This document shows positions 52,485 to 64,000 of a stretch of 64,000 bases of DNA, one piece after another (position 1 is the first letter of the stretch; every line of letters starts with the position of its first letter). Below the pieces are notes generated by a model, which saw only the letters and a program-made list of their open reading frames with translations, was not told the DNA's origin and searched no databases. The stretch is from a virus (taxonomy: Duplodnaviria; Caudoviricetes): the IMG/VR virus record IMGVR_UViG_3300006153_000003; one strand, 5' to 3'. The position numbers and the translations under genes are program-made.

Positions 52485-52732
52485 ATAAAAGACGAATTTC
52501 AACCGCATATGATTAGGAAGCGTTCCCCCAAGAATCTGACAGCGATTACGCTTCCTCATCCAAATTTACTGCCAGAGATTACATGGATATAACAATGAAC
52601 ACAAAGTCTAACATTCTTGACCGCATTTTAAATGTTATCCTCTGCATGTACTATTTTATCATAGGATAAATATGTATGCAATTATTATAGAACGACTTAT
52701 TTCGACATATAACCACTACTCTTTTATCTCAT

Positions 52733-53485
52733 CTAAATGGCAATATGGATACATTAAAATGTGTCACAGCAGGAGGAATGGCTGCTGAAGGATGGTATCG
52801 AGTATATGAAGCTACTGTAGCAGTTTCAAGCATTTCTGGTTTTGGGTCAGGTGGCGATAATGGGATAATTTTTATTTCTACGAATTACAACTATTCTTCT
52901 CCGATGTCTTGCATATTATTATATACAGTGGAATATGGCGGCATTATCCATTGGAACTGCATATCTTGTTCCTCAAATAATGATGTTAGAATTATTGACA
53001 AAATTCGCTTTAGTCTTATTCCTGGATCTAAAGTATCTATTGATATACACTATCGCACATCAAATAATAACAACTTTGAAATCAAACTCATCTCCAATAG
53101 ATTTGGGAAAAAATTCCATCGATTGGAAAATGCGCAGCCTATCACAGATAATCCGTTAACAATCTCTGAGTATGATATTCCAGTGACCTCTGATCTGGAT
53201 GTTGAAAGAACCGTGTTTATAGAAGGCGGGATCTGGTATAAAACAAATAAGTTTGTTTTGATTTCTTTGAATAAAACCATTACAAAGGATACCGGAGGAT
53301 GGAATACGTTATCTTCAGCTATACCAACCGCAAAAGAACAATGCTTTGCACCATACTTGTCTGCGGATTTAGGAGTACAAGGAAATTTAATGGTTATTAA
53401 TAACTCATTACAAATAGATATTCCAAGCGCTGCGATTGGTAAGACATTCACCGTTAGAGGGCAGATAATGTATAGGTTAGCATAG
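52733..53485 (+). other. silent tail-fibre C-terminal cassette 1
   Basis: Begins at in-frame TCTCAT-CTAAATGGCAA site; no RBS; internal CTCTGAT at 53188. Confidence 0.8.
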
Positions 53486-53489
53486 GGCT

Positions 53490-53981
53490 TTATACAGGAT
53501 ACTTAAAGAAACGAACTCTAACACGTTGCGAAACAGTAGAATATATGTACCATACTCCAACATCCCGAAATACGTGATCCATAACGGAATTGTCATCAAA
53601 ATGTGACATAACAACCGGAATATAATTATCACTATTCGGAGCGTCTGATATACGAACAAAAGAACCGCCTGTCGTAACCACAATACAGTCAACATAGCTA
53701 AAATCAGAGTTTGTGATATAGATTCTCCATCCTGCCCAGTCACTACCATTATAGAAATTAAACGCCAATGGGGCACTATCAATACCAAATAAAGCTACAA
53801 CTATAGAAGTGGGTGATCGTTTCAAAATAACCGCACTTCCATATTTATAACTATTATTTGGCAAATCGTCGCTTAAGTAGCTGGAACCGGATAAAGAATA
53901 TGCGAAAAAACCAATAGGTAGCTTAGTTGCCTTAAGTAAAACACTTTCACTTATCATAACATTTCCGATATTGCCATTTAG
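53490..53981 (-). other. silent tail-fibre C-terminal cassette 2
   Basis: Begins at CTAAATGGCAA (53981-53971), in frame; ends YIPVV...FFKYPV like the expressed fibre. Confidence 0.88.
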
Positions 53982-54045
53982 ATGAGAAGACAAACATTCT
54001 TTTTGCCATACTATAGCCTAAAAATTACGAAAGGAATTCAAACAA

Positions 54046-54222
54046 ATGAATACAACTAATGAAACTGTTACTATTTCGAATGAGCAGCAGTTAAATTCAA
54101 AAATAATTGATGTGATTATTGATATTTTAGCAAATAATAATTTATCTATTGCTGATGCAAAAAATATTCTATATGTAACATCAAAAAAATTATCTCAGCA
54201 AAAAGTTAAATCTTCTTTATAA
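54046..54222 (+). CDS. small hypothetical protein (58 aa)
   Basis: Read by hand: AAAGGA RBS, MNTTNETVTISNEQQLNSKIIDVIIDIL... Confidence 0.5.
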   Translation: MNTTNETVTISNEQQLNSKIIDVIIDILANNNLSIADAKNILYVTSKKLSQQKVKSSL

Positions 54223-54496
54223 TTTGACTTAACTTCTGTGATATATTTTCTAGTTCACTTCTAATCTCCCATGATTCGGTTTGGTCGCTCCCTGTATTAG
54301 AATTAATATTTTTGAGTTCCTTTTCAATATTCTCCAAATAATCTTTCGGAGAATGTTCATCAAAACCATCTGATTGAATATTTCTTATTGCGTCCATAAT
54401 ATTACAATTTTCCGGATCCCCATCATCAAAACAATTATTATTAAAAATGCATTCACTTACACATTTCCCGTTAACAAAAGGGCAGAATGATTCCAT
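54206..54496 (-). CDS. small Cys-rich moron protein
   Basis: CPF...C...C...C N-terminus, AGAGG RBS, antisense. Confidence 0.65.
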   Translation of the reverse strand: MESFCPFVNGKCVSECIFNNNCFDDGDPENCNIMDAIRNIQSDGFDEHSPKDYLENIEKELKNINSNTGSDQTESWEIRSELENISQKLSQIIKKI

Positions 54497-54677
54497 ATAA
54501 AAATACCTCTTTCAAAATTTTATAATATTATTATATAACAATACACCATATTTTCCATATAATTTTTATTTGCTAAGCGAATAAACAAGATTATTTCATG
54601 TGTAGGAGAAAAAGATTAACAATCACTCCTACTATTTTTATTATAAAATTCAAGAATAAAAGGAGTACATAAAATAT

Positions 54678-54935
54678 ATGAACAACACTAAAACAATTGA
54701 ATTGCTGCGAAAACGGAATACTCAACTACAAGAAGAACTTGACCGATTAAAGGAATTAAACACGAAACATTCCGACAAACCAGAAGATAAGAAAATTTCA
54801 GAATTAATCGCTGACCTAGAGAACATTCGCAAAGAATGGATGAATGTTTTGGAAGAATTAAATCATGATCGAGAAGAATACTGTAAATTATTAGAAGACT
54901 TACATACTATTCGAGAAACATTCAAAATGATATAA
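54678..54935 (+). CDS. coiled-coil hypothetical protein
   Basis: AAGGAG RBS. Confidence 0.75.
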   Translation: MNNTKTIELLRKRNTQLQEELDRLKELNTKHSDKPEDKKISELIADLENIRKEWMNVLEELNHDREEYCKLLEDLHTIRETFKMI

Positions 54936-54968
54936 GAATAAAATTTCACAGGAAAAGAGGTGATAAAT

Positions 54969-55766
54969 ATGATTGCAATGGATTTTGAATATGATGGTGA
55001 ATATTTAAAAAATTACGGATTTACAATCTGTAGTATAAATGAAAATGGTTTCAATACCATCACTACGGATTCACAGGCAACTTTTAATAATGTAAAATTA
55101 ATGAATGGTAAACTATTTGAAATTACTACTTCTCAGTATGAAGATCGTTTGGAAATCAATTTCCAAATATGCAAGTATACTTCCGGCCATAAATTACATC
55201 CTATTTCCCATTACGAGGCAAGAGAATTAAAACGTTGGTTAAATAGACCTACCTTTAAGAGATTTAAGTTTATACAGCCTTACTGGGCAGATATTTATAT
55301 GGAAGGAAGCTTTAATGTAAAGAATATAGTATGTGGTGGAGAAATCTTTTTACTAGAACTAACTTTCATTAGTAATCATCCCTTTGCACTACACGAACCT
55401 ATCACCCATAGGATATTCACCTCTGCTACTAACGAATCTTATACTTTTTTTGACACATCAGATGAGATCGGATATATATACCCAGACATAAAAATCACTT
55501 GTCTGCAAAACGGGAAATTAGAAATAACCAATTCTAACGAAAATAGGATTACCGAAATAAAGAACTGCTCATCTGGTGAAATTATACAATTCACTCCAAA
55601 ATTATTGATGTCTACTTCTCTCCCGTCCCATAAGATTCAAAACGATTTCAATTATAAGTTTTTCAGAATATCTAACTCCTATAACAATCGTAAGAATACT
55701 TTAACTTTCTCACTTCCTGTAGAAGTAGAAATAACATATTGTCCTTATGTGAAGGTGGTGATGTAA
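54969..55766 (+). CDS. distal tail protein (Dit)
   Basis: DFEYDGEYL..YG N-terminus, RWLNR, SDEIGYIYPDIKI; precedes Tal. Confidence 0.8.
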   Translation: MIAMDFEYDGEYLKNYGFTICSINENGFNTITTDSQATFNNVKLMNGKLFEITTSQYEDRLEINFQICKYTSGHKLHPISHYEARELKRWLNRPTFKRFKFIQPYWADIYMEGSFNVKNIVCGGEIFLLELTFISNHPFALHEPITHRIFTSATNESYTFFDTSDEIGYIYPDIKITCLQNGKLEITNSNENRITEIKNCSSGEIIQFTPKLLMSTSLPSHKIQNDFNYKFFRISNSYNNRKNTLTFSLPVEVEITYCPYVKVVM

Positions 55767-55767
55767 T

Positions 55768-58700
55768 ATGGCAATAAAGATAAATTTTGATAGTGCTGGC
55801 AGACCAGAAATCCCCACATTCATACTTTCTGAGAAAAATGGAGATCATGTAGGTGTATTAAGTACAGTATCTCAAATTCACACTATAGGTAATTTAAATT
55901 CTTTTTCTGAATTTTCCTTTTCTATATATAAAGTATTAAACGAAGAAAAATGTGAATTCTGGGATGATATAGATAATTTCCATATCATGTATATTCCAGA
56001 ATGGGATAAATGGTTTGAAATTTATGTAGAAATAGATGAAAAAGATAGTTGTGTAAAAAATGTAACAGCTAAAACTATCCAAGAAGCTGAATTATCTCAA
56101 ATTTTACTGTTTGATATAGAAATAAATACAGAAAAAGATATAGAGAAGGATGATTATGTTCCTACTGTTCTATTTGAGCACAATAATGCAAAAGCTTCCT
56201 TATTACATAGATTGCTGGCTGATAAGGCACAGCACTATAAGATAATTCATGTTGATAGCACTATAGCCAAGAAACAACGGAGTTTTAGCTTTAACAATAT
56301 CTCTATTCATGATGCATTCCGTGAAATCTCTGAAGAACTTCACTGTTTATTTGTTTATGGTGAAGATAGTGGTTCAGAAGGAATCCCAAGAACAATTTCT
56401 GTATATGACCTAGAATCGAATTGTAATAAATGTGGCTACCGTGGAGAATATATGGGTATATGTCCAGAATGTGGTAGTCTGGATATTGATGAAGGGTACG
56501 GCGAAGACACTACTATCTTTGTATCAAATGAAAATTTGGCAGAAGGTGTTACCTTTTCAACAGACACGGATTCTGTAAAAAATTGTTTCCGTCTTGAAGC
56601 TGGTGATGATGATATGACAGCAGCAATTGTAAATATAAATCCTTCTGGTACACGATATATCTGGTATTTCCCAGATTATATGAAAAAACGTATGTCAAAA
56701 GGGCTTGTAGAGAAAATAGATTCTTTCAATACTCAATTAATCTACTATGAAAAGTCTTATCAGGAAAACTTGAATGCAACGATATTAAGCAACTATAATC
56801 AACTTATTGATAAATACCGGACTTATAAAAACACTTTGGAGAATATATCAGTCCCGATTACAGGATATCATAATTTGATGAAGATCTATTATGATATCAT
56901 AGACTTTAAAGGATATCTGCAAAATTCCCTGATGCCTAATATAGAAATATCAGAAACGAGTGTCACACAGCAAGCAGGTTTATTGACGGCAGGCAATCTC
57001 TCTCCTGTTTCTGTTGAGAACACATCCTATATTTCCCTGGCAACCGCTAATAGCGTGATTTTGTCATATGCCAAGGTTTTTATAGACACAGCAAAATACA
57101 AGGTAAAAGTAAAATCATCTAGTTTGACAGGAACTACTTGGACAGGTAATTTTACAGTTGTTAGCTATACAGACGACGAAGATACTGCTGACAGTCGTAC
57201 TATCACCATACAGATCAATGATAATTATGAGAATTTTGTAAAGCAAAAAATAGATAAGATTCTTACGAAGGAAAATGAAGATATCAGTATTATCGGATTG
57301 TTCAAGAAAACTGATGTAAATTTCAAAAATGATTTGAAGAAGTATAGCTTATCTTGTCTTCAGGTCATACATGATGCTTGTCAGGCATGTTTAGACATAT
57401 TGATTGAGCAAGGTATCTCAAACATGAAATCTGATTTATATGAAAAAATATATAAACCGTACAGAGATAAGCTAACCTATATCGAACAGGAAATTAAAGT
57501 GCGTGAATCAGAGATTGCCATCGTTGACGCAATTTATGATAAAGATGGTGATGTCGTAGCAGATGGCATGAAATCACTTATACAGAAAAAACGCAGAGAA
57601 ATTTCTAAAATTCTTGATTTCAAAAAGTATCTTGGAGATTACTGGAATGAATTTTGTTCCTTTAGACGTGAGGATTTGTGGAAGAATACTAACTATATTT
57701 CAGAAGGTTTGGACAATGCACAGCTATTCAAACAGGCAAAAGAATTCCTGGAATCAGCAAAAAAGGATCTCATTAAATCAGCAACACAGCAGCACAGCAT
57801 CTCTACTACCCTTAAGAATCTTTTAGTAATGGAAGATTTCAAACCTCTTGTCGAACATTTTGCAGTAGGAAACTGGTTAAGAATCGGTGTTGATGATAAA
57901 GTTTACAAACTTCGCTTGATTTCTTATGAGATTGATTATGAAAATCTTGATACTATTACTGTTGAATTCTCTGATGTCGTAGACGCATTTGGATTAATGA
58001 AAGATATTGAAGATATACTGAATCAGAGCCAATCCATTTCCAACTCCTATGATTCTGTAAAACACCAGGCTGAAGAGGGAGACAAGGCAAATGGTAGGTT
58101 GAAAGGATGGGTTGGTAAAGGGCTTGAAGCCACTACTATCAAAATCATGAATAACGCCGATGACCAAGATTATGTTTTTGACCGTCATGGAATGGTTTTC
58201 AGAAAAAAGGATCCTGATACGGATACCTACTCTCCTGTCCAAGTGAAAATCATAAATTCCACTATTGCTATGACCACTGATAATTGGATGACTTCTAAGG
58301 TCGCTGTCGGAGAATATATTTACCTGGATCCACGAGACTGGAAATATAAAACCGGATATGGGGTAATTGCTGATACTTTGATTGGTAATCTCATTCTTGG
58401 TGAAGAGGTTGGTATTTATAATGATAAAGGAACCATGACCTTCAAAGAAGATGGTCTGACGGTCACGAATGGCATTAATACTTTCCAGGTAAATCCAAAT
58501 TCCAAGACACTTTTGACTCTCTCCCATAATGATAGGAGGATTCTATACGTGGATGAGACTGGCGAATTGCATATTGAAGGTGACGGTTCTGCTCTTGATA
58601 TCACAGCTAATGGTACAGTGGAAGGCATGAATACTAAGATAACTCAGAATGCAAAAGCTATTACATTAGAGGCCAATCGTGCATCAGAAGCAGAAGGAAA

Positions 58701-59286
58701 ATTGTCAGCTTCTATTGAAGTAAATGCAAACGCTATTACTCAAAGGGTACAAAAAGATGAATTTGGTTCATACATGGAGCAGAATTATGAGAGCTTTTTG
58801 ATTGGATTTAATAAAAGTAGCAAGGTAATTCAGATAACCGATGGAGAAATCGCTATCTATGATAATTCCAAAACCAATAGTAAAAAGCGTGCAAGTTTCG
58901 ATGAACGTGGCAATAGTTTTTGGCGAGATGGTTATCGTATTGGTACAATAGGTACGAATAAATTAAAAGACTATCCATCAAAAAAAGGACTAGATTTTGA
59001 CCTGGAAACAGATGGTGCTTATATGACGTGGGCCTATAGAAATAAAACCGATGATGATGTTTATACCATGAAATGGACATATGCTGCTGAAAACTATGGT
59101 GATTATGCTGCTGATATGTTACATGCGGGGTGTGATATAGATATGCATAATTTCAATATATATAACGCAAAAATCTCAGAAGGATCTGTTAAATTCAATC
59201 TTCCAGGTATTACAGATATATTTGAAGCTGGCGGTATACGATGGAATTTCCAGAAAGGAAGATTAGTTGATGCAGCAGTCGTATAG
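55768..59286 (+). CDS. baseplate hub/Tal-like minor structural protein
   Basis: 1172 aa after Dit; VGNWLRI..DDKVYKLRLISYEIDY..TVEFSD hub motif; coiled-coil extension. Confidence 0.8.
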   Translation: MAIKINFDSAGRPEIPTFILSEKNGDHVGVLSTVSQIHTIGNLNSFSEFSFSIYKVLNEEKCEFWDDIDNFHIMYIPEWDKWFEIYVEIDEKDSCVKNVTAKTIQEAELSQILLFDIEINTEKDIEKDDYVPTVLFEHNNAKASLLHRLLADKAQHYKIIHVDSTIAKKQRSFSFNNISIHDAFREISEELHCLFVYGEDSGSEGIPRTISVYDLESNCNKCGYRGEYMGICPECGSLDIDEGYGEDTTIFVSNENLAEGVTFSTDTDSVKNCFRLEAGDDDMTAAIVNINPSGTRYIWYFPDYMKKRMSKGLVEKIDSFNTQLIYYEKSYQENLNATILSNYNQLIDKYRTYKNTLENISVPITGYHNLMKIYYDIIDFKGYLQNSLMPNIEISETSVTQQAGLLTAGNLSPVSVENTSYISLATANSVILSYAKVFIDTAKYKVKVKSSSLTGTTWTGNFTVVSYTDDEDTADSRTITIQINDNYENFVKQKIDKILTKENEDISIIGLFKKTDVNFKNDLKKYSLSCLQVIHDACQACLDILIEQGISNMKSDLYEKIYKPYRDKLTYIEQEIKVRESEIAIVDAIYDKDGDVVADGMKSLIQKKRREISKILDFKKYLGDYWNEFCSFRREDLWKNTNYISEGLDNAQLFKQAKEFLESAKKDLIKSATQQHSISTTLKNLLVMEDFKPLVEHFAVGNWLRIGVDDKVYKLRLISYEIDYENLDTITVEFSDVVDAFGLMKDIEDILNQSQSISNSYDSVKHQAEEGDKANGRLKGWVGKGLEATTIKIMNNADDQDYVFDRHGMVFRKKDPDTDTYSPVQVKIINSTIAMTTDNWMTSKVAVGEYIYLDPRDWKYKTGYGVIADTLIGNLILGEEVGIYNDKGTMTFKEDGLTVTNGINTFQVNPNSKTLLTLSHNDRRILYVDETGELHIEGDGSALDITANGTVEGMNTKITQNAKAITLEANRASEAEGKLSASIEVNANAITQRVQKDEFGSYMEQNYESFLIGFNKSSKVIQITDGEIAIYDNSKTNSKKRASFDERGNSFWRDGYRIGTIGTNKLKDYPSKKGLDFDLETDGAYMTWAYRNKTDDDVYTMKWTYAAENYGDYAADMLHAGCDIDMHNFNIYNAKISEGSVKFNLPGITDIFEAGGIRWNFQKGRLVDAAVV

Positions 59287-59309
59287 ATAAACTGGAAAGG
59301 GGAAATATC

Positions 59310-59498
59310 ATGGCCAATATAAATAAAAACGAAGGCAGAGCTTATATTATGCCAAAAGGTACTCCTGTAAATATAGAAGAATCACCTTCTTTAAATGGAC
59401 AAGTACCCACCTATTCATTAGAGATGAATTTATTAAAAGAAGTCAATCAAAAATTAGATTTATTACTCACATCACTAAAAATATCAATAAAGGAGTAA
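59310..59498 (+). CDS. small hypothetical protein
   Basis: AAAGGGG RBS. Confidence 0.65.
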   Translation: MANINKNEGRAYIMPKGTPVNIEESPSLNGQVPTYSLEMNLLKEVNQKLDLLLTSLKISIKE

Positions 59499-59506
59499 TC
59501 TTTAAT

Positions 59507-59731
59507 ATGGAAAAACCATTACTTTTAGTACGCGAAGAGTTTATGAGCGATCTGGCAGATTTGATTAATCAATCACGTCTGCCTTTTGTTATTATAGAGC
59601 CTATATTAGAGAAATTTTTAGAAAATGCCAGAGGTGCTATCAAACAGCAATTATCGGATGAAAAATTTCGATACGAAAAATATTTAAAGGAAAAGGAAAA
59701 AGAAGAATCAGGAAAAAATTCTGATGAGTAA
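59507..59731 (+). CDS. small hypothetical protein
   Basis: AAGGAG RBS; terminator 59740-59771 follows. Confidence 0.7.
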   Translation: MEKPLLLVREEFMSDLADLINQSRLPFVIIEPILEKFLENARGAIKQQLSDEKFRYEKYLKEKEKEESGKNSDE

Positions 59732-59824
59732 AATATATAAAGCTCTTAGTTTCGTCTAAGGGCTTATTTTTATGGATTCTCAAGCAATTATGCATTTGCT
59801 TGTGTGTCCAGGAAAGGAGTCAGG

Positions 59825-60844
59825 ATGATACAGCAAAATGGATATCTAGCAGTACAACATATACGGGTTCGTATCAATCATAATATCATCAGCACTGTTA
59901 ATCTGGTTCAAGGTGACACAGCCCGTGAATTTCATTTTTTCTTTGACGACTACATCATCCCAGAAGGTGCAGAATTTCGTATTTATATTCGTAAACCGTC
60001 TGGTTGTGAAATATATAGTCATTGCTACTTACGAAATGATGAAATCGTTGTGCAACCCACTTTACAAATGGTTGCCGAAAAAGGACAGAACTTAGGTCAG
60101 ATACAAATTATAAAGGATGACAAATTGCTTAACACTTTCGTCTTCTATCTTGCTATCGAAGAAAATCTTATCTTCTCCTCCTCTATTACTTCTTCAAACG
60201 AATTCGATCTAATCAATGATTTCATAGATACTGCAAGGCGGTTAATCCCAGAAATAGAAAAAACACTTGCAGATGCCCAGGAGCAAGAAGCTAAACGAGA
60301 GGATTCAGAGAATGATAGAAAAAATAATGAACTGGTCAGAATTCTTAATGAAGATGAACGAGTAAATAATGAAAATACACGTATAGCTAATGAAATTATA
60401 CGAAATGAAAACGAAGAAGTCCGGAAAGCAAATGAGATTGAACGTCAAAAAAATACAGGCATTGCCATAAAAGAAGCCAATACTGCCAGAGATAAGGCAA
60501 ACGAAGCTACTAAGAATGCAAATGACACTGCTCAAGACATAAAAGATAAATTAGCTAATGGTGAATTTAGTGCAAGTATCCACGTAGGTGATGTAACAAC
60601 TGGAGATGCTAGCAGCGAAGTCGAAATCACAAATACTGGCACGGCTAAAGATGCTGTATTTAATTTTAAAATCCCCAAAGGAGATACAGGTGAAAGTGGT
60701 ATCACTACTCCCATCAGCGGTTTTCTCTCTTTATCGGTAGATGATTTAGGCAATCTATATGTACATTACAATGATGAACCCGAAAATCAAGAATTTGAAT
60801 ATGATCCGGATACCGGAAGTTTATATTATATCACACCAGATTAA
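59825..60844 (+). CDS. BppU-like upper baseplate protein
   Basis: VQGDTARE...IRKPSG N-terminal BppU motif; E..R..NE coil; NTGT...AVFNFKIPKG. Confidence 0.8.
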   Translation: MIQQNGYLAVQHIRVRINHNIISTVNLVQGDTAREFHFFFDDYIIPEGAEFRIYIRKPSGCEIYSHCYLRNDEIVVQPTLQMVAEKGQNLGQIQIIKDDKLLNTFVFYLAIEENLIFSSSITSSNEFDLINDFIDTARRLIPEIEKTLADAQEQEAKREDSENDRKNNELVRILNEDERVNNENTRIANEIIRNENEEVRKANEIERQKNTGIAIKEANTARDKANEATKNANDTAQDIKDKLANGEFSASIHVGDVTTGDASSEVEITNTGTAKDAVFNFKIPKGDTGESGITTPISGFLSLSVDDLGNLYVHYNDEPENQEFEYDPDTGSLYYITPD

Positions 60845-60867
60845 TAAGAAAGGAAGGATGATAATAT

Positions 60868-61920
60868 ATGGGAAAAGTATTAATTGGAAATATTAAGGGA
60901 CCTCAAGGACCAACCGGCGTAAGAGGCGGTATGTGGTTACAGGGAACTGCAGTTACAGGTACAAGTACAGAAGAAACTTCATTTCCTGATTCAAATATCA
61001 CTTACGCAATTATCGGAGACGCTTATTTTAACGTAGAAACGTGTAATGTATATGCATGTACTAAAGCCGGAAATCCAACTGATGCAAAGTGGGTTTATAC
61101 TGGGAATATTAAAGGTGTAAAAGGTGACACTGGTAGCACACAATCAATTCAGAATGCGGTTCTTGAGTTTAATGAAGCTCTTACTCGCGAAAATATTGAA
61201 TCAACTGATACTGTTGAGACAATCTTTGGAAAGGTTAAGAAATATTTTACAGATTTAGGCTCTGCTGCTTTTATGAATGTTGTAAATAATGTCACTCAAT
61301 CAGAAGCAGGACAAGCGGTACTTGATGCTGCTGTCGGAAAATACCTTGAAGAGAAAAAGTTTGATATAAGTAAAATTATAGCAAATCGAAACATCACAGA
61401 ACCCGGATTTGTTATGGATGGCAAAACCGTTGCCGACGCTCTTACTGAGCTAAATGGCAAATTCGCAGTAACAATTATAGAGGGGGACTTGTTTGAATAT
61501 GCGGAATTGTTACCTGTCGGATTCTATACGTTTGGAGCAAATGCAAATACGACTAATGTTCCGGACTCCCCATCTGCTGGATGTATTATAAAACGCACAT
61601 CCTCACATATTTCCATTATTCTTGTGGCATATGGAACTGGAAAATATTATTGCGTTGAATATGGTGGTAATTGGCGAAAGTGGAACAAATTAGTACTAGA
61701 CTCTGATTTAGAAGTAATTTCATTTTCCCAAGAGATTATAGCCGATACAGCTACAGCATTAAGTTCAGCTCCACAAAGTAAACAATATATACCTGTCGTA
61801 ACTACAGTATCAGGAACACCGAGATATGCGGGAAGTTTTTGCTTTACATCCGGCTCATGGTATTTTACAGCTAATAATACACAAAGGTATGGATTTGCTT
61901 TTTATAAGTATCCTGTATAA
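60868..61920 (+). CDS. tail fibre/receptor-binding protein with exchangeable C-terminus
   Basis: GNIKGPQG collagen-like start; in-frame CTAAATGGCAA at 61450-61460 (ELNGK) and CTCTGAT at 61701. Confidence 0.88.
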   Translation: MGKVLIGNIKGPQGPTGVRGGMWLQGTAVTGTSTEETSFPDSNITYAIIGDAYFNVETCNVYACTKAGNPTDAKWVYTGNIKGVKGDTGSTQSIQNAVLEFNEALTRENIESTDTVETIFGKVKKYFTDLGSAAFMNVVNNVTQSEAGQAVLDAAVGKYLEEKKFDISKIIANRNITEPGFVMDGKTVADALTELNGKFAVTIIEGDLFEYAELLPVGFYTFGANANTTNVPDSPSAGCIIKRTSSHISIILVAYGTGKYYCVEYGGNWRKWNKLVLDSDLEVISFSQEIIADTATALSSAPQSKQYIPVVTTVSGTPRYAGSFCFTSGSWYFTANNTQRYGFAFYKYPV

Positions 61921-62015
61921 GAGGAGATCCCATGATTTCAGCGAAAGGAAATAGAAAACCGAATTCACAGCATCTTTATAATATTGTTACAAGATAATGA
62001 GTTGATTTTCGTAAT

Positions 62016-62501
62016 TTACGCCGGATACTTGTAAAAACGAATAGTCATATTTTGTTCAGTAGGTGATATCACAAGCCACGAATTTGCGCCCCGATTTCCA
62101 TAAACTGAAACGCCTGTATAATCACTACTTACTCTTAATACAACAGGGATATAATTCATGCCTGTTATGTTGGGGACATAGTTATTGCTACCACGGACAG
62201 TATCCATTGTGACATCCGTATAGCCTAAATCAGAGGTTAGAACATATGGAATCCATGTAACTTCTTGTTCTCGATTAATCATTGAACCTGAGTACAACCG
62301 AGAAGGAATATCTAATAGTCCAGTATACACAATTGCCAAGAAATATGAATCTCCAGCAAAATATCCAGGTCTAGAATATCCGAGGGTTCTAATAATAACA
62401 CCGTAATTCCCTGGAAAATTTCCGCCAGAATTTTTCCATTCGCCTATACTCCATATTTTGAACGAATTTCCCCTAGATATAGTATTTATATTGCCATTTA
62501 G
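62016..62501 (-). other. silent tail-fibre C-terminal cassette 4
   Basis: Frame open from CTAAATGGCAA (62501-62491): LNGNINTISRGNSFKIWSIGEW...; ends YIPVV...FYKYPA. Confidence 0.88.
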
Positions 62502-62607
62502 ATGAGAAGTTAAACTTTTCGAAAGACACTTGTAATTTAGATTTTTATGTCATATAATATCGGTAAAAATCATTTTGATAAATAAAGCGTATAGAGGAGG
62601 AATATTA

Positions 62608-63267
62608 ATGATTTCTACAAAAGATATGGCATTTTATTATCCTAATGGTGAAGAAATCAAAAAAGAAATATTTTTAGATTTCTATAGTAAATGCTATTAT
62701 ATGAATAATAATGTTTTTGTCGAAGATGAGATTGAGAAATTATTAGATAAAGGTAAAAATAATTTGACAGAAGAGGATTTGTTTAATATTTTAGCTTGGA
62801 AGATTGGGAAGATTAATCACAAAAAATCCAATCCAGATGATGGTATAATATATTATAAGGATTGGAACAAAGAACTTTTAGAAGCTAAAATATATAAAGA
62901 TTCATTGGACAAAGAGTTTTTTTCTTGCATTAAAAAAAGTTTATTAGAAATTAATGGTGAAGAATTGATCGATTATATAAACAAATTGAAAGATATAAAT
63001 CATCTAGGACCAGTGTATATTGTCACATTGAGATATTTTTCAACAAAAGGGAAATATCCAATTTATGATAGATTTGCATATAAAGCAATACAAGCCATTT
63101 TAAATAATCATATTCCTTTTGATTTAATTCCTGAAAAAAATACATTAAATAAAAACATTAATGATATATATAATGAATATTTAAAAAAATTACAAAATAT
63201 TTTTCCAGAGAATTTTAGCGAACGAAAAGTTGACCAAGCATTGTGGGTTTATGGACATTTATTTTAA
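62608..63267 (+). CDS. hypothetical protein, possible HhH-type DNA glycosylase-like fold
   Basis: LAWK, HLGPV, YPIYDRFA, RKVDQALWVYG; own promoter TTGTAA(62530)-17-TATAAT(62553). Confidence 0.6.
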   Translation: MISTKDMAFYYPNGEEIKKEIFLDFYSKCYYMNNNVFVEDEIEKLLDKGKNNLTEEDLFNILAWKIGKINHKKSNPDDGIIYYKDWNKELLEAKIYKDSLDKEFFSCIKKSLLEINGEELIDYINKLKDINHLGPVYIVTLRYFSTKGKYPIYDRFAYKAIQAILNNHIPFDLIPEKNTLNKNINDIYNEYLKKLQNIFPENFSERKVDQALWVYGHLF

Positions 63268-63345
63268 ACACTTTGATTAATAATATTGTCACTCAACTAA
63301 GTATCTAATATCTATATTATAATTTGATTTTTAATTCTTAAAGTA

Positions 63346-63380
63346 ATAAAAGACATCAGTACCTATCTGGTGTCTTTTAT
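63346..63380. terminator. bidirectional terminator
   Basis: ATAAAAGACATCAG/CTGGTGTCTTTTAT between convergent genes. Confidence 0.75.
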
Positions 63381-63419
63381 CAATTATATGTAATTATTGT
63401 AGTTGATTATTTTGTGCAT

Positions 63420-64000
63420 TTATGCACTCAAATATTTTTTATGATGATACTGTACACTTGCTTGGTCAACAGTACAGTAAATCATAGTAGTTTCGAGTTT
63501 TGCGTGTCCTAAGAAGCGAGAAACTTCTTGTAAGGGCATTCCTCTATTCAATGCGTTAGTTGCTGCTGTCCGACGAAAACGATGTGGATGAGCGTCTTCA
63601 ACACCAGCGCGTTTGCCAATGCGTCGAATAATATCTTCTGCACCAGCTTTTGTTAATCGTTTGTTTGGTTTCCTTAATCCTACAAATAAAGCAGGGTTAT
63701 CATCATCCCGGCTATCTAAATATTCTTTCATGTACATACATGATCTGTCGTTCAAGTAAACAATTCTTTCTTTTCCTCCTTTCCCATACACGAGTAAGTC
63801 TCTTGTCATGAAATTCAAATCTTTTCTATCAAGACTTAAAAATTCACTTACTCGAACTGCTGTACTATACAAGAATTCTAACATTGCCTTATCTCTGAGA
63901 TTAGTGCAGTTTCGAGATAGTAATTCCCTTTCTTCGTCTGTGTAAGGTTTCTTTAGAATCTGTTCCACCTTGATATCTGATACGAGAACCATAGGATTTT
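63420..64000 (-). CDS. XerC/D-like tyrosine recombinase, probable shufflon invertase (5' end outside window)
   Basis: TAVRVSE, GKGGKER, HPHRFRR, LGH, TTMIY; adjacent to fibre cassettes. Confidence 0.92.
   Translation of the reverse strand, partial: NPMVLVSDIKVEQILKKPYTDEERELLSRNCTNLRDKAMLEFLYSTAVRVSEFLSLDRKDLNFMTRDLLVYGKGGKERIVYLNDRSCMYMKEYLDSRDDDNPALFVGLRKPNKRLTKAGAEDIIRRIGKRAGVEDAHPHRFRRTAATNALNRGMPLQEVSRFLGHAKLETTMIYCTVDQASVQYHHKKYLSA

Follow-up and report, generated by a model that had tools for sequence, protein, structure and literature searches.

Are the alternative ends of a phage tail-fibre gene exchanged only as whole units, or can they also be taken apart and re-paired at a second point inside them? 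This question is raised by a locus in a 64,000-nucleotide (nt) stretch of viral DNA (Duplodnaviria; Caudoviricetes; IMG/VR record IMGVR_UViG_3300006153_000003), hereafter the window, which is AT-rich (~32% GC) and was assigned to a large phage or prophage of mouse-gut bacteria. The window carries a fibre gene of 350 amino acids (aa) (60868-61920, plus strand) and four alternative fibre C-termini: c1 (52727-53485, plus) and c2 (53987-53490, minus) in locus 1, and c3 (61445-61920, plus) and c4 (62507-62016, minus) in locus 2. At present c3 is the cassette fused to the constant part of the fibre; c1, c2 and c4 are silent. Every cassette opens with a primary site, here called A, and contains further in the heptamer CTCTGAT, here called joint B, which encodes an S-D pair. 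A sequence-only reading of the window had seen in this heptamer a possible second crossover class giving combinations of middle and tip modules. That idea is supported by natural chimeras which switch exactly at S-D-L, reciprocal c3 x c4 forms among them, and we conclude that the inner joint is a precise, repeatedly used, in-frame recombination point.

The heptamer was confirmed where it had first been reported, always in the S-D frame and at the boundary between a middle and a tip module: 53188-53194 (plus) in c1, 53703-53709 (minus) in c2, 61701-61707 (plus) in c3 and 62229-62235 (minus) in c4. In c1, a middle larger than the others (52747-53187) is followed by the joint (acC TCT GAT CTG) and a tip at 53195-53485. 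In c2, the middle occupies 53710-53967 and the tip, which ends in FFKYPV, 53490-53702, with a joint reading aaC TCT GAT TTT. The c3 middle (61461-61700) and tip (61712-61920, ending in FYKYPV and a stop codon) flank a joint extending over 61701-61711, CTCTGATTTAG (gaC TCT GAT TTA Gaa), which is identical over 11 nt to its inverted copy in c4 (62225-62235, minus; ACC TCT GAT TTA), itself placed between the c4 middle (62236-62487) and a c4 tip ending in FYKYPA (62016-62224). The c3 and c4 joints form a 19-nt inverted repeat, 84% complementary, in which these 11 nt are identical. The c2, c3 and c4 tips form one homologous group (YIPVV ... F[YF]KYP[VA], with invariant S-D, Y-I-P, W, Q and F-K-Y-P), those of c3 and c4 being 27% identical, and the c1 tip is unrelated to these KYPV tips, scoring E 0.034 against their profile, under the inclusion threshold; on this point, too, tip alignment and profile score confirmed what had been read from the window alone.

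The evidence that carries the finding comes from the re-pairing of c3 and c4. Chimeras at the motif, on whose absence the idea was to have fallen, were sought in public assemblies, and both reciprocal forms were found; they are known as protein sequences from assemblies, and five junctions (c1-c4 and that of a related locus, L010) were read as DNA. The silent open reading frames (ORFs) P0118 and P0120 join the c3 middle to the c4 tip, P0120 matching them at 79/79 and 69/69 positions, while the silent ORFs P0119 and P0121 join the c4 middle (34/35 in P0119) to the c3 tip (69/69). The latter combination is also met in an expressed form, P0122, where a different fibre stalk precedes the c4 middle (84/85) and the c3 tip (69/69). 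The parental c3 and c4 forms are present as well (P0123, P0124, P0144 and P0009), P0009 being c4 middle plus c4 tip as expressed. The c3/c4 switch lies inside S-D-L, that is, within the shared 11 nt. To judge by their sequences, these chimeras represent both reciprocal outcomes that one would expect if 61708-62228 were inverted between the inner joints of the facing cassettes.

Re-pairing is not confined to c3 and c4. A c3 middle that is 100% identical occurs with four tips (in P0123, in P0120, in P0117 with a P0005-like tip and in P0001 with a P0006-like tip), and a c3 tip that is 100% identical occurs behind three middles, those of c3, of c4 (P0119, P0122) and of the P0002 type (P0002, P0125-P0128). 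P0022 and P0029 have the same middle and two different tips, P0153 combines the c2 middle (85/87) with a c1-like tip, and in P0151 a c1-like middle (132/148 identical) leads, after SDF, into a different tip. Tips like that of c1 are found behind other middles in P0153, P0154 and P0017, and straight after an LNGN site in P0152. When stretches of 30 residues ahead of the joint and of 60 residues behind it were clustered at 90% identity across the whole family, 83 middle and 69 tip clusters were obtained in 89 combinations; at least 15 tip clusters stand behind at least two unrelated middles, with the transitions falling within ~1 residue of the motif.

For locus 1, evidence at the DNA level is given by a contig of X9, one of the 20 public runs, mouse-gut or isolate, in which the stretch is present (X1-X20). 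Over its 1304 nt this contig carries a c1-like tip on the plus strand and a c1-like middle on the minus strand, with a breakpoint between 53183 and 53215 that brackets CTCTGAT at 53188; an inner-joint inversion in locus 1 would be expected to leave such an arrangement. A contig of X15 that contains c4 and part of the c3 tip was also considered as evidence for a joint; it ends at 61759, 52 nt inside the tip, and was not counted.

These exchanges take place within a system whose outer tier is plainly at work. The 11-nt core CTAAATGGCAA opens every cassette and is found as four exact copies in the window, two per strand and none elsewhere. The three silent A sites, at 52727-52746 (c1, plus), 53968-53987 (c2, minus) and 62488-62507 (c4, minus), have 20 nt in common, TCTCATCTAAATGGCAATAT, those of c1 and c2 being 100% complementary. 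The site of the expressed gene (c3; 61445-61460, plus), which encodes ELNG-K, has only the core in common with them, at 61450-61460, and primary crossovers must fall within this core. In a contig of X3, 52727-53980 is inverted, with 20 shared bases at the joint (52727|53988); contigs of X9, X14 and X15 depart from the window precisely at A sites, and those of X9 and X14 have loose ends exactly after 61460. The parts of the stretch left uncovered in X3, X9, X14 and X15 mean only that these strains have other cassettes. An identical constant part is fused to c2 (P0004), to c3 (P0123), to c4 (P0009) and to at least seven further cassettes, and the constant part with its at least ten different C-termini (P0001-P0013) shows every switch after ELNG[K/N]. 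The outer sites are thus active, and the site A tier is a working shufflon. An Xer-like tyrosine recombinase gene, truncated by the end of the window, adjoins it (63420-64000, minus; its product matches PF00589 with E 3.8e-40 on 63420-63998).

A distance of 7.5 kilobases (kb) separates the locus 1 cassettes (52727-53987) from the fibre gene downstream, and in the window no constant part belongs to them. Since P0004 consists of the constant part and c2, these remote cassettes are in use, and the fusion implies inversion of the whole baseplate block 53988-61444. At the same place, the related locus L011 has the end of a second fibre stalk (L011:2092-2291, ending WLNELNGN, 73% like 61264-61463), and in P0003, P0047 and P0122 (452-457 aa) this second stalk is joined to the same c3 and c4 cassettes; from these sequences, one cassette pool appears to be common to two fibre genes.

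What does the joint mark in the protein? That S-D might stand at a domain boundary was examined with an AlphaFold2 model of the 350-aa fibre, made from an alignment of 37 sequences, with a mean predicted local distance difference test score (pLDDT) of 64 and values of 80-95 over the last 70 residues and the c3 tip. The prediction agrees with the suggestion: S279-D280-L281 forms a short turn between two beta domains, after the last strand of the middle domain (273-275) and before the first strand of the tip (283-290). Single-domain cassettes of relatives (P0016, P0019) stop immediately before the S-D-L point. Clustering of the tip-domain family at 50% identity left 89 representatives, of which 52 have S-D-[LF] ahead of the tip and ~66 have x-D-[LF]; if the same tip comes directly after an A-like site, Q-T, L-K or L-R stands in place of S-D (QTL, LKL, LRL). 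S-D-L is thus characteristic of the middle/tip junction. In distant relatives (P0228, P0232, P0239, P0263, P0269 and P0152), KYPV- or c1-type tips stand directly after an A-like site (ELNS.., SLNGK, TLNGN) with no middle at all, which means that a given tip module can join the fibre through either tier. The constant part (60868-61444, plus) has a collagen-like start and a helical stalk, and a fold search with the fibre model matches the R2 pyocin fibre and the phi812 baseplate fibre, giving only fibre-like matches of low template-modelling score.

A separate question is whether the joint is a signal in the DNA. The bare heptamer is not enriched in the window (15 copies, against 10.0 +/- 3.4 in shuffles, with 11/100 shuffles reaching 15), and the non-random feature is that four copies share both their frame and the module boundary at which they stand. 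Their uniform codons had been taken as a sign of DNA-level constraint. TCT, GAT and a preceding C are indeed present in all four cassettes of the window, but the expressed cassette of L010, the fifth with available DNA, reads AAA TCT GAT TTA, which leaves TCT GAT in five of five cassettes and the leading C in four. In this DNA, TCT makes up 35% of Ser and GAT 80% of Asp codons, each the commonest for its residue; TCT in five of five has a p of ~0.005 on the assumption of independent cassettes, although the tips are in fact paralogous. Codon usage does vary at other invariant residues of these tips that have three- to six-fold degeneracy (I, P, V). The signal at the DNA level is real but moderate, and the earlier argument stands to that extent. 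The joint had also been likened to the left arm of the primary site, and the likeness holds for the non-essential left flank, TCTCATCTA, and not for the 11-nt core; over eight A sites the left flank reads WMTBAK-YTA, a pattern that TCTGATTTA fits. The first six bases of the c3/c4 joint as read on the opposite strand, CTAAATCAGAG, are CTAAAT and recur in the core, which is likely a by-product of the common GAT TTA codons, and no weight was given to it.

How, then, might the exchange come about? We propose that each fibre C-terminal cassette is made of a middle domain and a tip domain with a three-codon linker, S-D-L/F, between them, and that the linker DNA (TCTGAT, with 7-11 nt identical between facing cassettes) acts as the second, inner crossover joint of the tail-fibre shufflon. 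If the inner joints of a facing pair recombined by inversion, only the tips would be flipped (61708-62228 in locus 2, 53195-53702 in locus 1) and each middle would be re-paired with the other tip, in frame; inversion between outer A sites would pick the cassette that is fused to the constant stalk, and the two tiers together would yield combinations of middles and tips. The cutting and rejoining would be done by a dedicated enzyme, the Xer-like tyrosine recombinase encoded next to the cassettes or another, by inversion in cis and with the inner joint as a weaker secondary site. We consider such a recombinase-catalysed second tier to be, with some reserve, the probable explanation. In its favour are the frequency and precision of events between modules that cannot otherwise be aligned, the synonymous conservation at the joint, and the presence of an active recombinase system at the same place. 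The size of the joint is within range, as the expressed and silent primary sites likewise have no more than 11 nt in common, and the rix sites of the Rin shufflon described below are of this size. The more specific proposal, in which one Xer-like enzyme would serve two kinds of very short in-frame site that are unrelated to each other, the outer selecting the cassette and the inner, of 7-11 nt, re-pairing its domains, is tentative, and we would give it slightly less than an even chance.

Several observations speak against a recombinase acting at the inner joint. The likeness between the joint and the primary site is confined to the variable left flank, the GGCAA of the core being absent, and there are no conserved arms around the inner joint. 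A degenerate form of the motif, TCTSATYT, has 35 copies in the window, so that it cannot specify a site by itself, and the leading C is not universal, as seen in L010. Some chimeras of the family are joined at variant motifs (VDL, SVL, DDV, PDP, TDF and SKF). Among the matches listed for Logan contigs, which drop minor variants, there were no loose ends or joints at 53188, 53709, 61701 or 62235, and contigs that span inner joints are unbroken there (X3 over c1 and c2, X15 over c4). The occurrence of S-D-[LF] in 52 of 89 tip representatives makes a reason at the protein level plausible. Finally, a single ancestral inversion could yield both reciprocal c3/c4 chimeras, though not the many other combinations.

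A competing explanation is that S-D-L/F is a conserved linker, and that tips are exchanged by rare recombinase-independent recombination at microhomology or short homology, or by template switching, at the 7-11 shared bases, followed by selection for products that are in frame and preserve the domains; the joint would then be an evolutionary hot spot and not a programmed switch. Such an origin would fit a linker that is widespread among tips and placed at a predicted domain boundary, the variant junction motifs, a motif that is short, common in the genome and unlike the primary core, and contigs that show no heterogeneity within samples. The exchange of adhesin modules at conserved motifs in gp37/gp38 of T-even phages reportedly offers a precedent. 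For the pneumococcal hsdS locus, inversion at two classes of repeats out of three was found to do without the locus recombinase (PMC4948785). However, recombination of the RecA type is very inefficient at 7-11 nt, and yet at least 15 independent exchanges of near-identical modules are found in ~120 sequences, with all junctions seen being precise and in frame, those of silent cassettes included. A uniform Ser codon would not be expected from constraint on the protein alone, and the tip fold evidently needs no S-D, as the pair is replaced when a tip follows an A-like site. We regard this explanation as the main competitor, possible but rather doubtful, and keep to a recombinase-catalysed inner tier.

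The sequence-only reading had itself offered an alternative, an accessory site bound by the recombinase. In this view, widened here to binding by a cofactor, the motif would aid synapsis of the outer sites with no crossover taking place at it. For this one could cite the partial likeness of TCTGATYTA to the left flank of the silent sites and a similar distance of the motif from the A core in three cassettes (251, 266 and 272 nt). The crossovers map to the motif, though, the distance in c1 is 455 nt, and single-domain cassettes with no motif (P0010, P0011, P0018-P0020) are used normally; this alternative found no support, and we hold it to be very improbable. That the four motifs are coincidental and the chimeras artefacts of assembly is hardly credible, even if the heptamer count is within chance and TCT and GAT are the commonest codons for their residues, because the shared sequence (11 nt or less) is shorter than any assembler k-mer (k = 21-31), the same chimeras turn up in collections that are independent of one another (Logan, ENA, JGI), both in silent ORFs and in expressed fibres with two different stalks, and both reciprocal forms exist.

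A two-tier shufflon of this kind can be set against several known systems. In the R64/IncI1 plasmid shufflon, the Rci recombinase acts at sfx sites to vary pilV C-termini. It resembles the system proposed here as a multiple-inversion switch with a tyrosine recombinase, in which the sites are short and asymmetric with only a core and one arm conserved, and adhesin C-termini vary; it differs in being plasmid-borne, in serving a pilus adhesin and in having one tier, where each segment is a complete C-terminus; the recombinase here is Xer-like. In T-even phages, Tetart and co-workers are said to have described in 1998 how recombination at conserved motifs swaps adhesin modules of the tail-fibre proteins gp37/gp38. 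There, as here, short conserved motifs at the module borders of a phage adhesin would be the exchange points for host-range modules, but the T-even exchange reportedly occurs between genomes by general recombination, with no dedicated recombinase, inverted silent cassettes or reciprocal inversion products. The Gin, Cin and Min systems (of Mu, P1 and p15B) alternate phage tail-fibre C-termini by DNA inversion, Min with six alternatives, and differ in using serine invertases with 26-base-pair (bp) dyad sites and an enhancer and in exchanging whole C-termini only. The FRphi shufflon is grouped here with such serine-invertase fibre switches (bioRxiv 10.1101/2025.07.22.666180).

The outer tier resembles the Rin shufflon of Bifidobacterium prophages (Mavrich et al. 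2018, PMC6109161), which has a tyrosine-family recombinase and rix sites of 11 bp. It is phage-encoded, its recombinase gene adjoins the locus, and the constant N-terminal part of a receptor-binding-protein gene is fused alternately to C-terminal cassettes at 11-bp asymmetric in-frame repeats, which is how the site A tier works here. In contrast, Rin has one class of sites, ahead of whole cassettes, with no inner joint or exchange of sub-domains described (PMC6109161), whereas the cassettes here are also spread over two loci 7.5 kb apart. For the two-tier logic, the closest precedent is given by phase-variable hsdS loci of type I restriction systems, such as the pneumococcal Spn556II/SpnD39III with PsrA, where one class of inverted repeats at the gene start and another in its middle allow two recognition modules to be re-paired independently, a tyrosine recombinase gene lies in the locus, and this recombinase is needed for one of three inverted-repeat classes (PMC4948785). 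The protein family and the biology are different, and the repeats are longer, at 15-85 bp and more. In the present locus, a second inverted-repeat class lies in frame at an internal module boundary and both reciprocal products occur; that PsrA is needed for only one class of repeats counsels caution against assuming a single enzyme here. In the papers that we searched on phage shufflons (Rin, Min/Gin/Cin, FRphi), we found no description of an inner, sub-cassette joint re-pairing fibre domains. The outer tier is of a known kind, the tyrosine-recombinase shufflon.

Phage shufflons are known to swap whole fibre ends, and if sub-domains are also re-paired at a second in-frame joint, the same few silent cassettes would supply a receptor-binding repertoire many times larger. 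Diversification of fibres in two tiers would help to explain how temperate gut phages track variable host surfaces. If one enzyme did serve two classes of sites, a few silent cassettes in two distant loci, together with two fibre genes, would give a multiplicative set of receptor-binding fibres and amount to a natural, programmable domain-swapping system for phage host range; and if the recombinase acts on the joint, an Xer-like enzyme would have in it a secondary site of unusual shortness and divergence. The joint is in addition a precise, naturally validated splice point between fibre domains, tolerated by dozens of natural combinations, and as such it informs on how receptor-binding proteins are built.

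Some further features of the A sites and of the cassette pool may be mentioned. The left flank of the silent A sites (CTT/TCT-TCTCAT; 52721-52732, 53982-53993 and 62502-62513) is conserved though untranslated, which suggests a putative recombinase-binding arm. In relatives, the flank of the A site encodes SYLNG, THLNG or S-D-L-I-G-N (P0150, P0151, P0153), and in the last variant the left half of the primary site spells the motif of the inner joint. An origin of P0152, or of the SDLIGN flank of P0150, by crossover between an A site and a B joint was considered and rejected, as the registers misfit a simple exchange of that type. An alternative cassette in relatives (L010:2028-3005, minus; P0012) is of ~290 aa and has an S74-type intramolecular-chaperone end, PF13884 being listed for P0012; the pool thus mixes very different architectures of the fibre end.

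The surrounding region, 52.7-64 kb, carries tail and baseplate genes, including those for a 1172-aa tail protein, a 346-aa fibre-like protein and a DUF6558 tail protein (54960-55766). A metagenome scan returned two close loci, L010 and L011, which add one further two-module cassette. Nothing similar was found in the phage collection, and IMG/VR gave distant stalk relatives only, with no tip relatives found; scans of collections with the 15-mer CAYCTAAATGGCAAT gave single chance matches only, the query being too unspecific, and loci L026-L220 are noise. In L012:2746-3816, L013:381-1526, L014:9878-10948 and L018:9974-10819, stalk identity is only 35-43%, yet ITELNGN is kept where the C-termini diverge, and from these sequences the ELNG switch point would appear to be conserved across a wide group of phages.

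The full-length homologue of the recombinase is a protein of 334 aa (L010:11084-12088) that matches the NCBIfam XerA/XerC/XerD-like family with E 1.8e-64, slightly below the equivalog cut-off. The gene is always accompanied by a 230-aa ORF (62575-63267, plus), which is 97% identical in L010. This ORF had no family match in Pfam, PHROG or NCBIfam, and an Atlas search led to unnamed clusters only; it is a candidate accessory factor. The two genes are inverted together in L010 and L011: the block that holds them (62595-64000; L010:11508-12913) has the opposite orientation in L010, L011 and X9, and in X9 the inverted block carrying the recombinase gene terminates at an A site (62479-62507). In some isomers, the recombinase gene itself thus seems to lie on invertible DNA.

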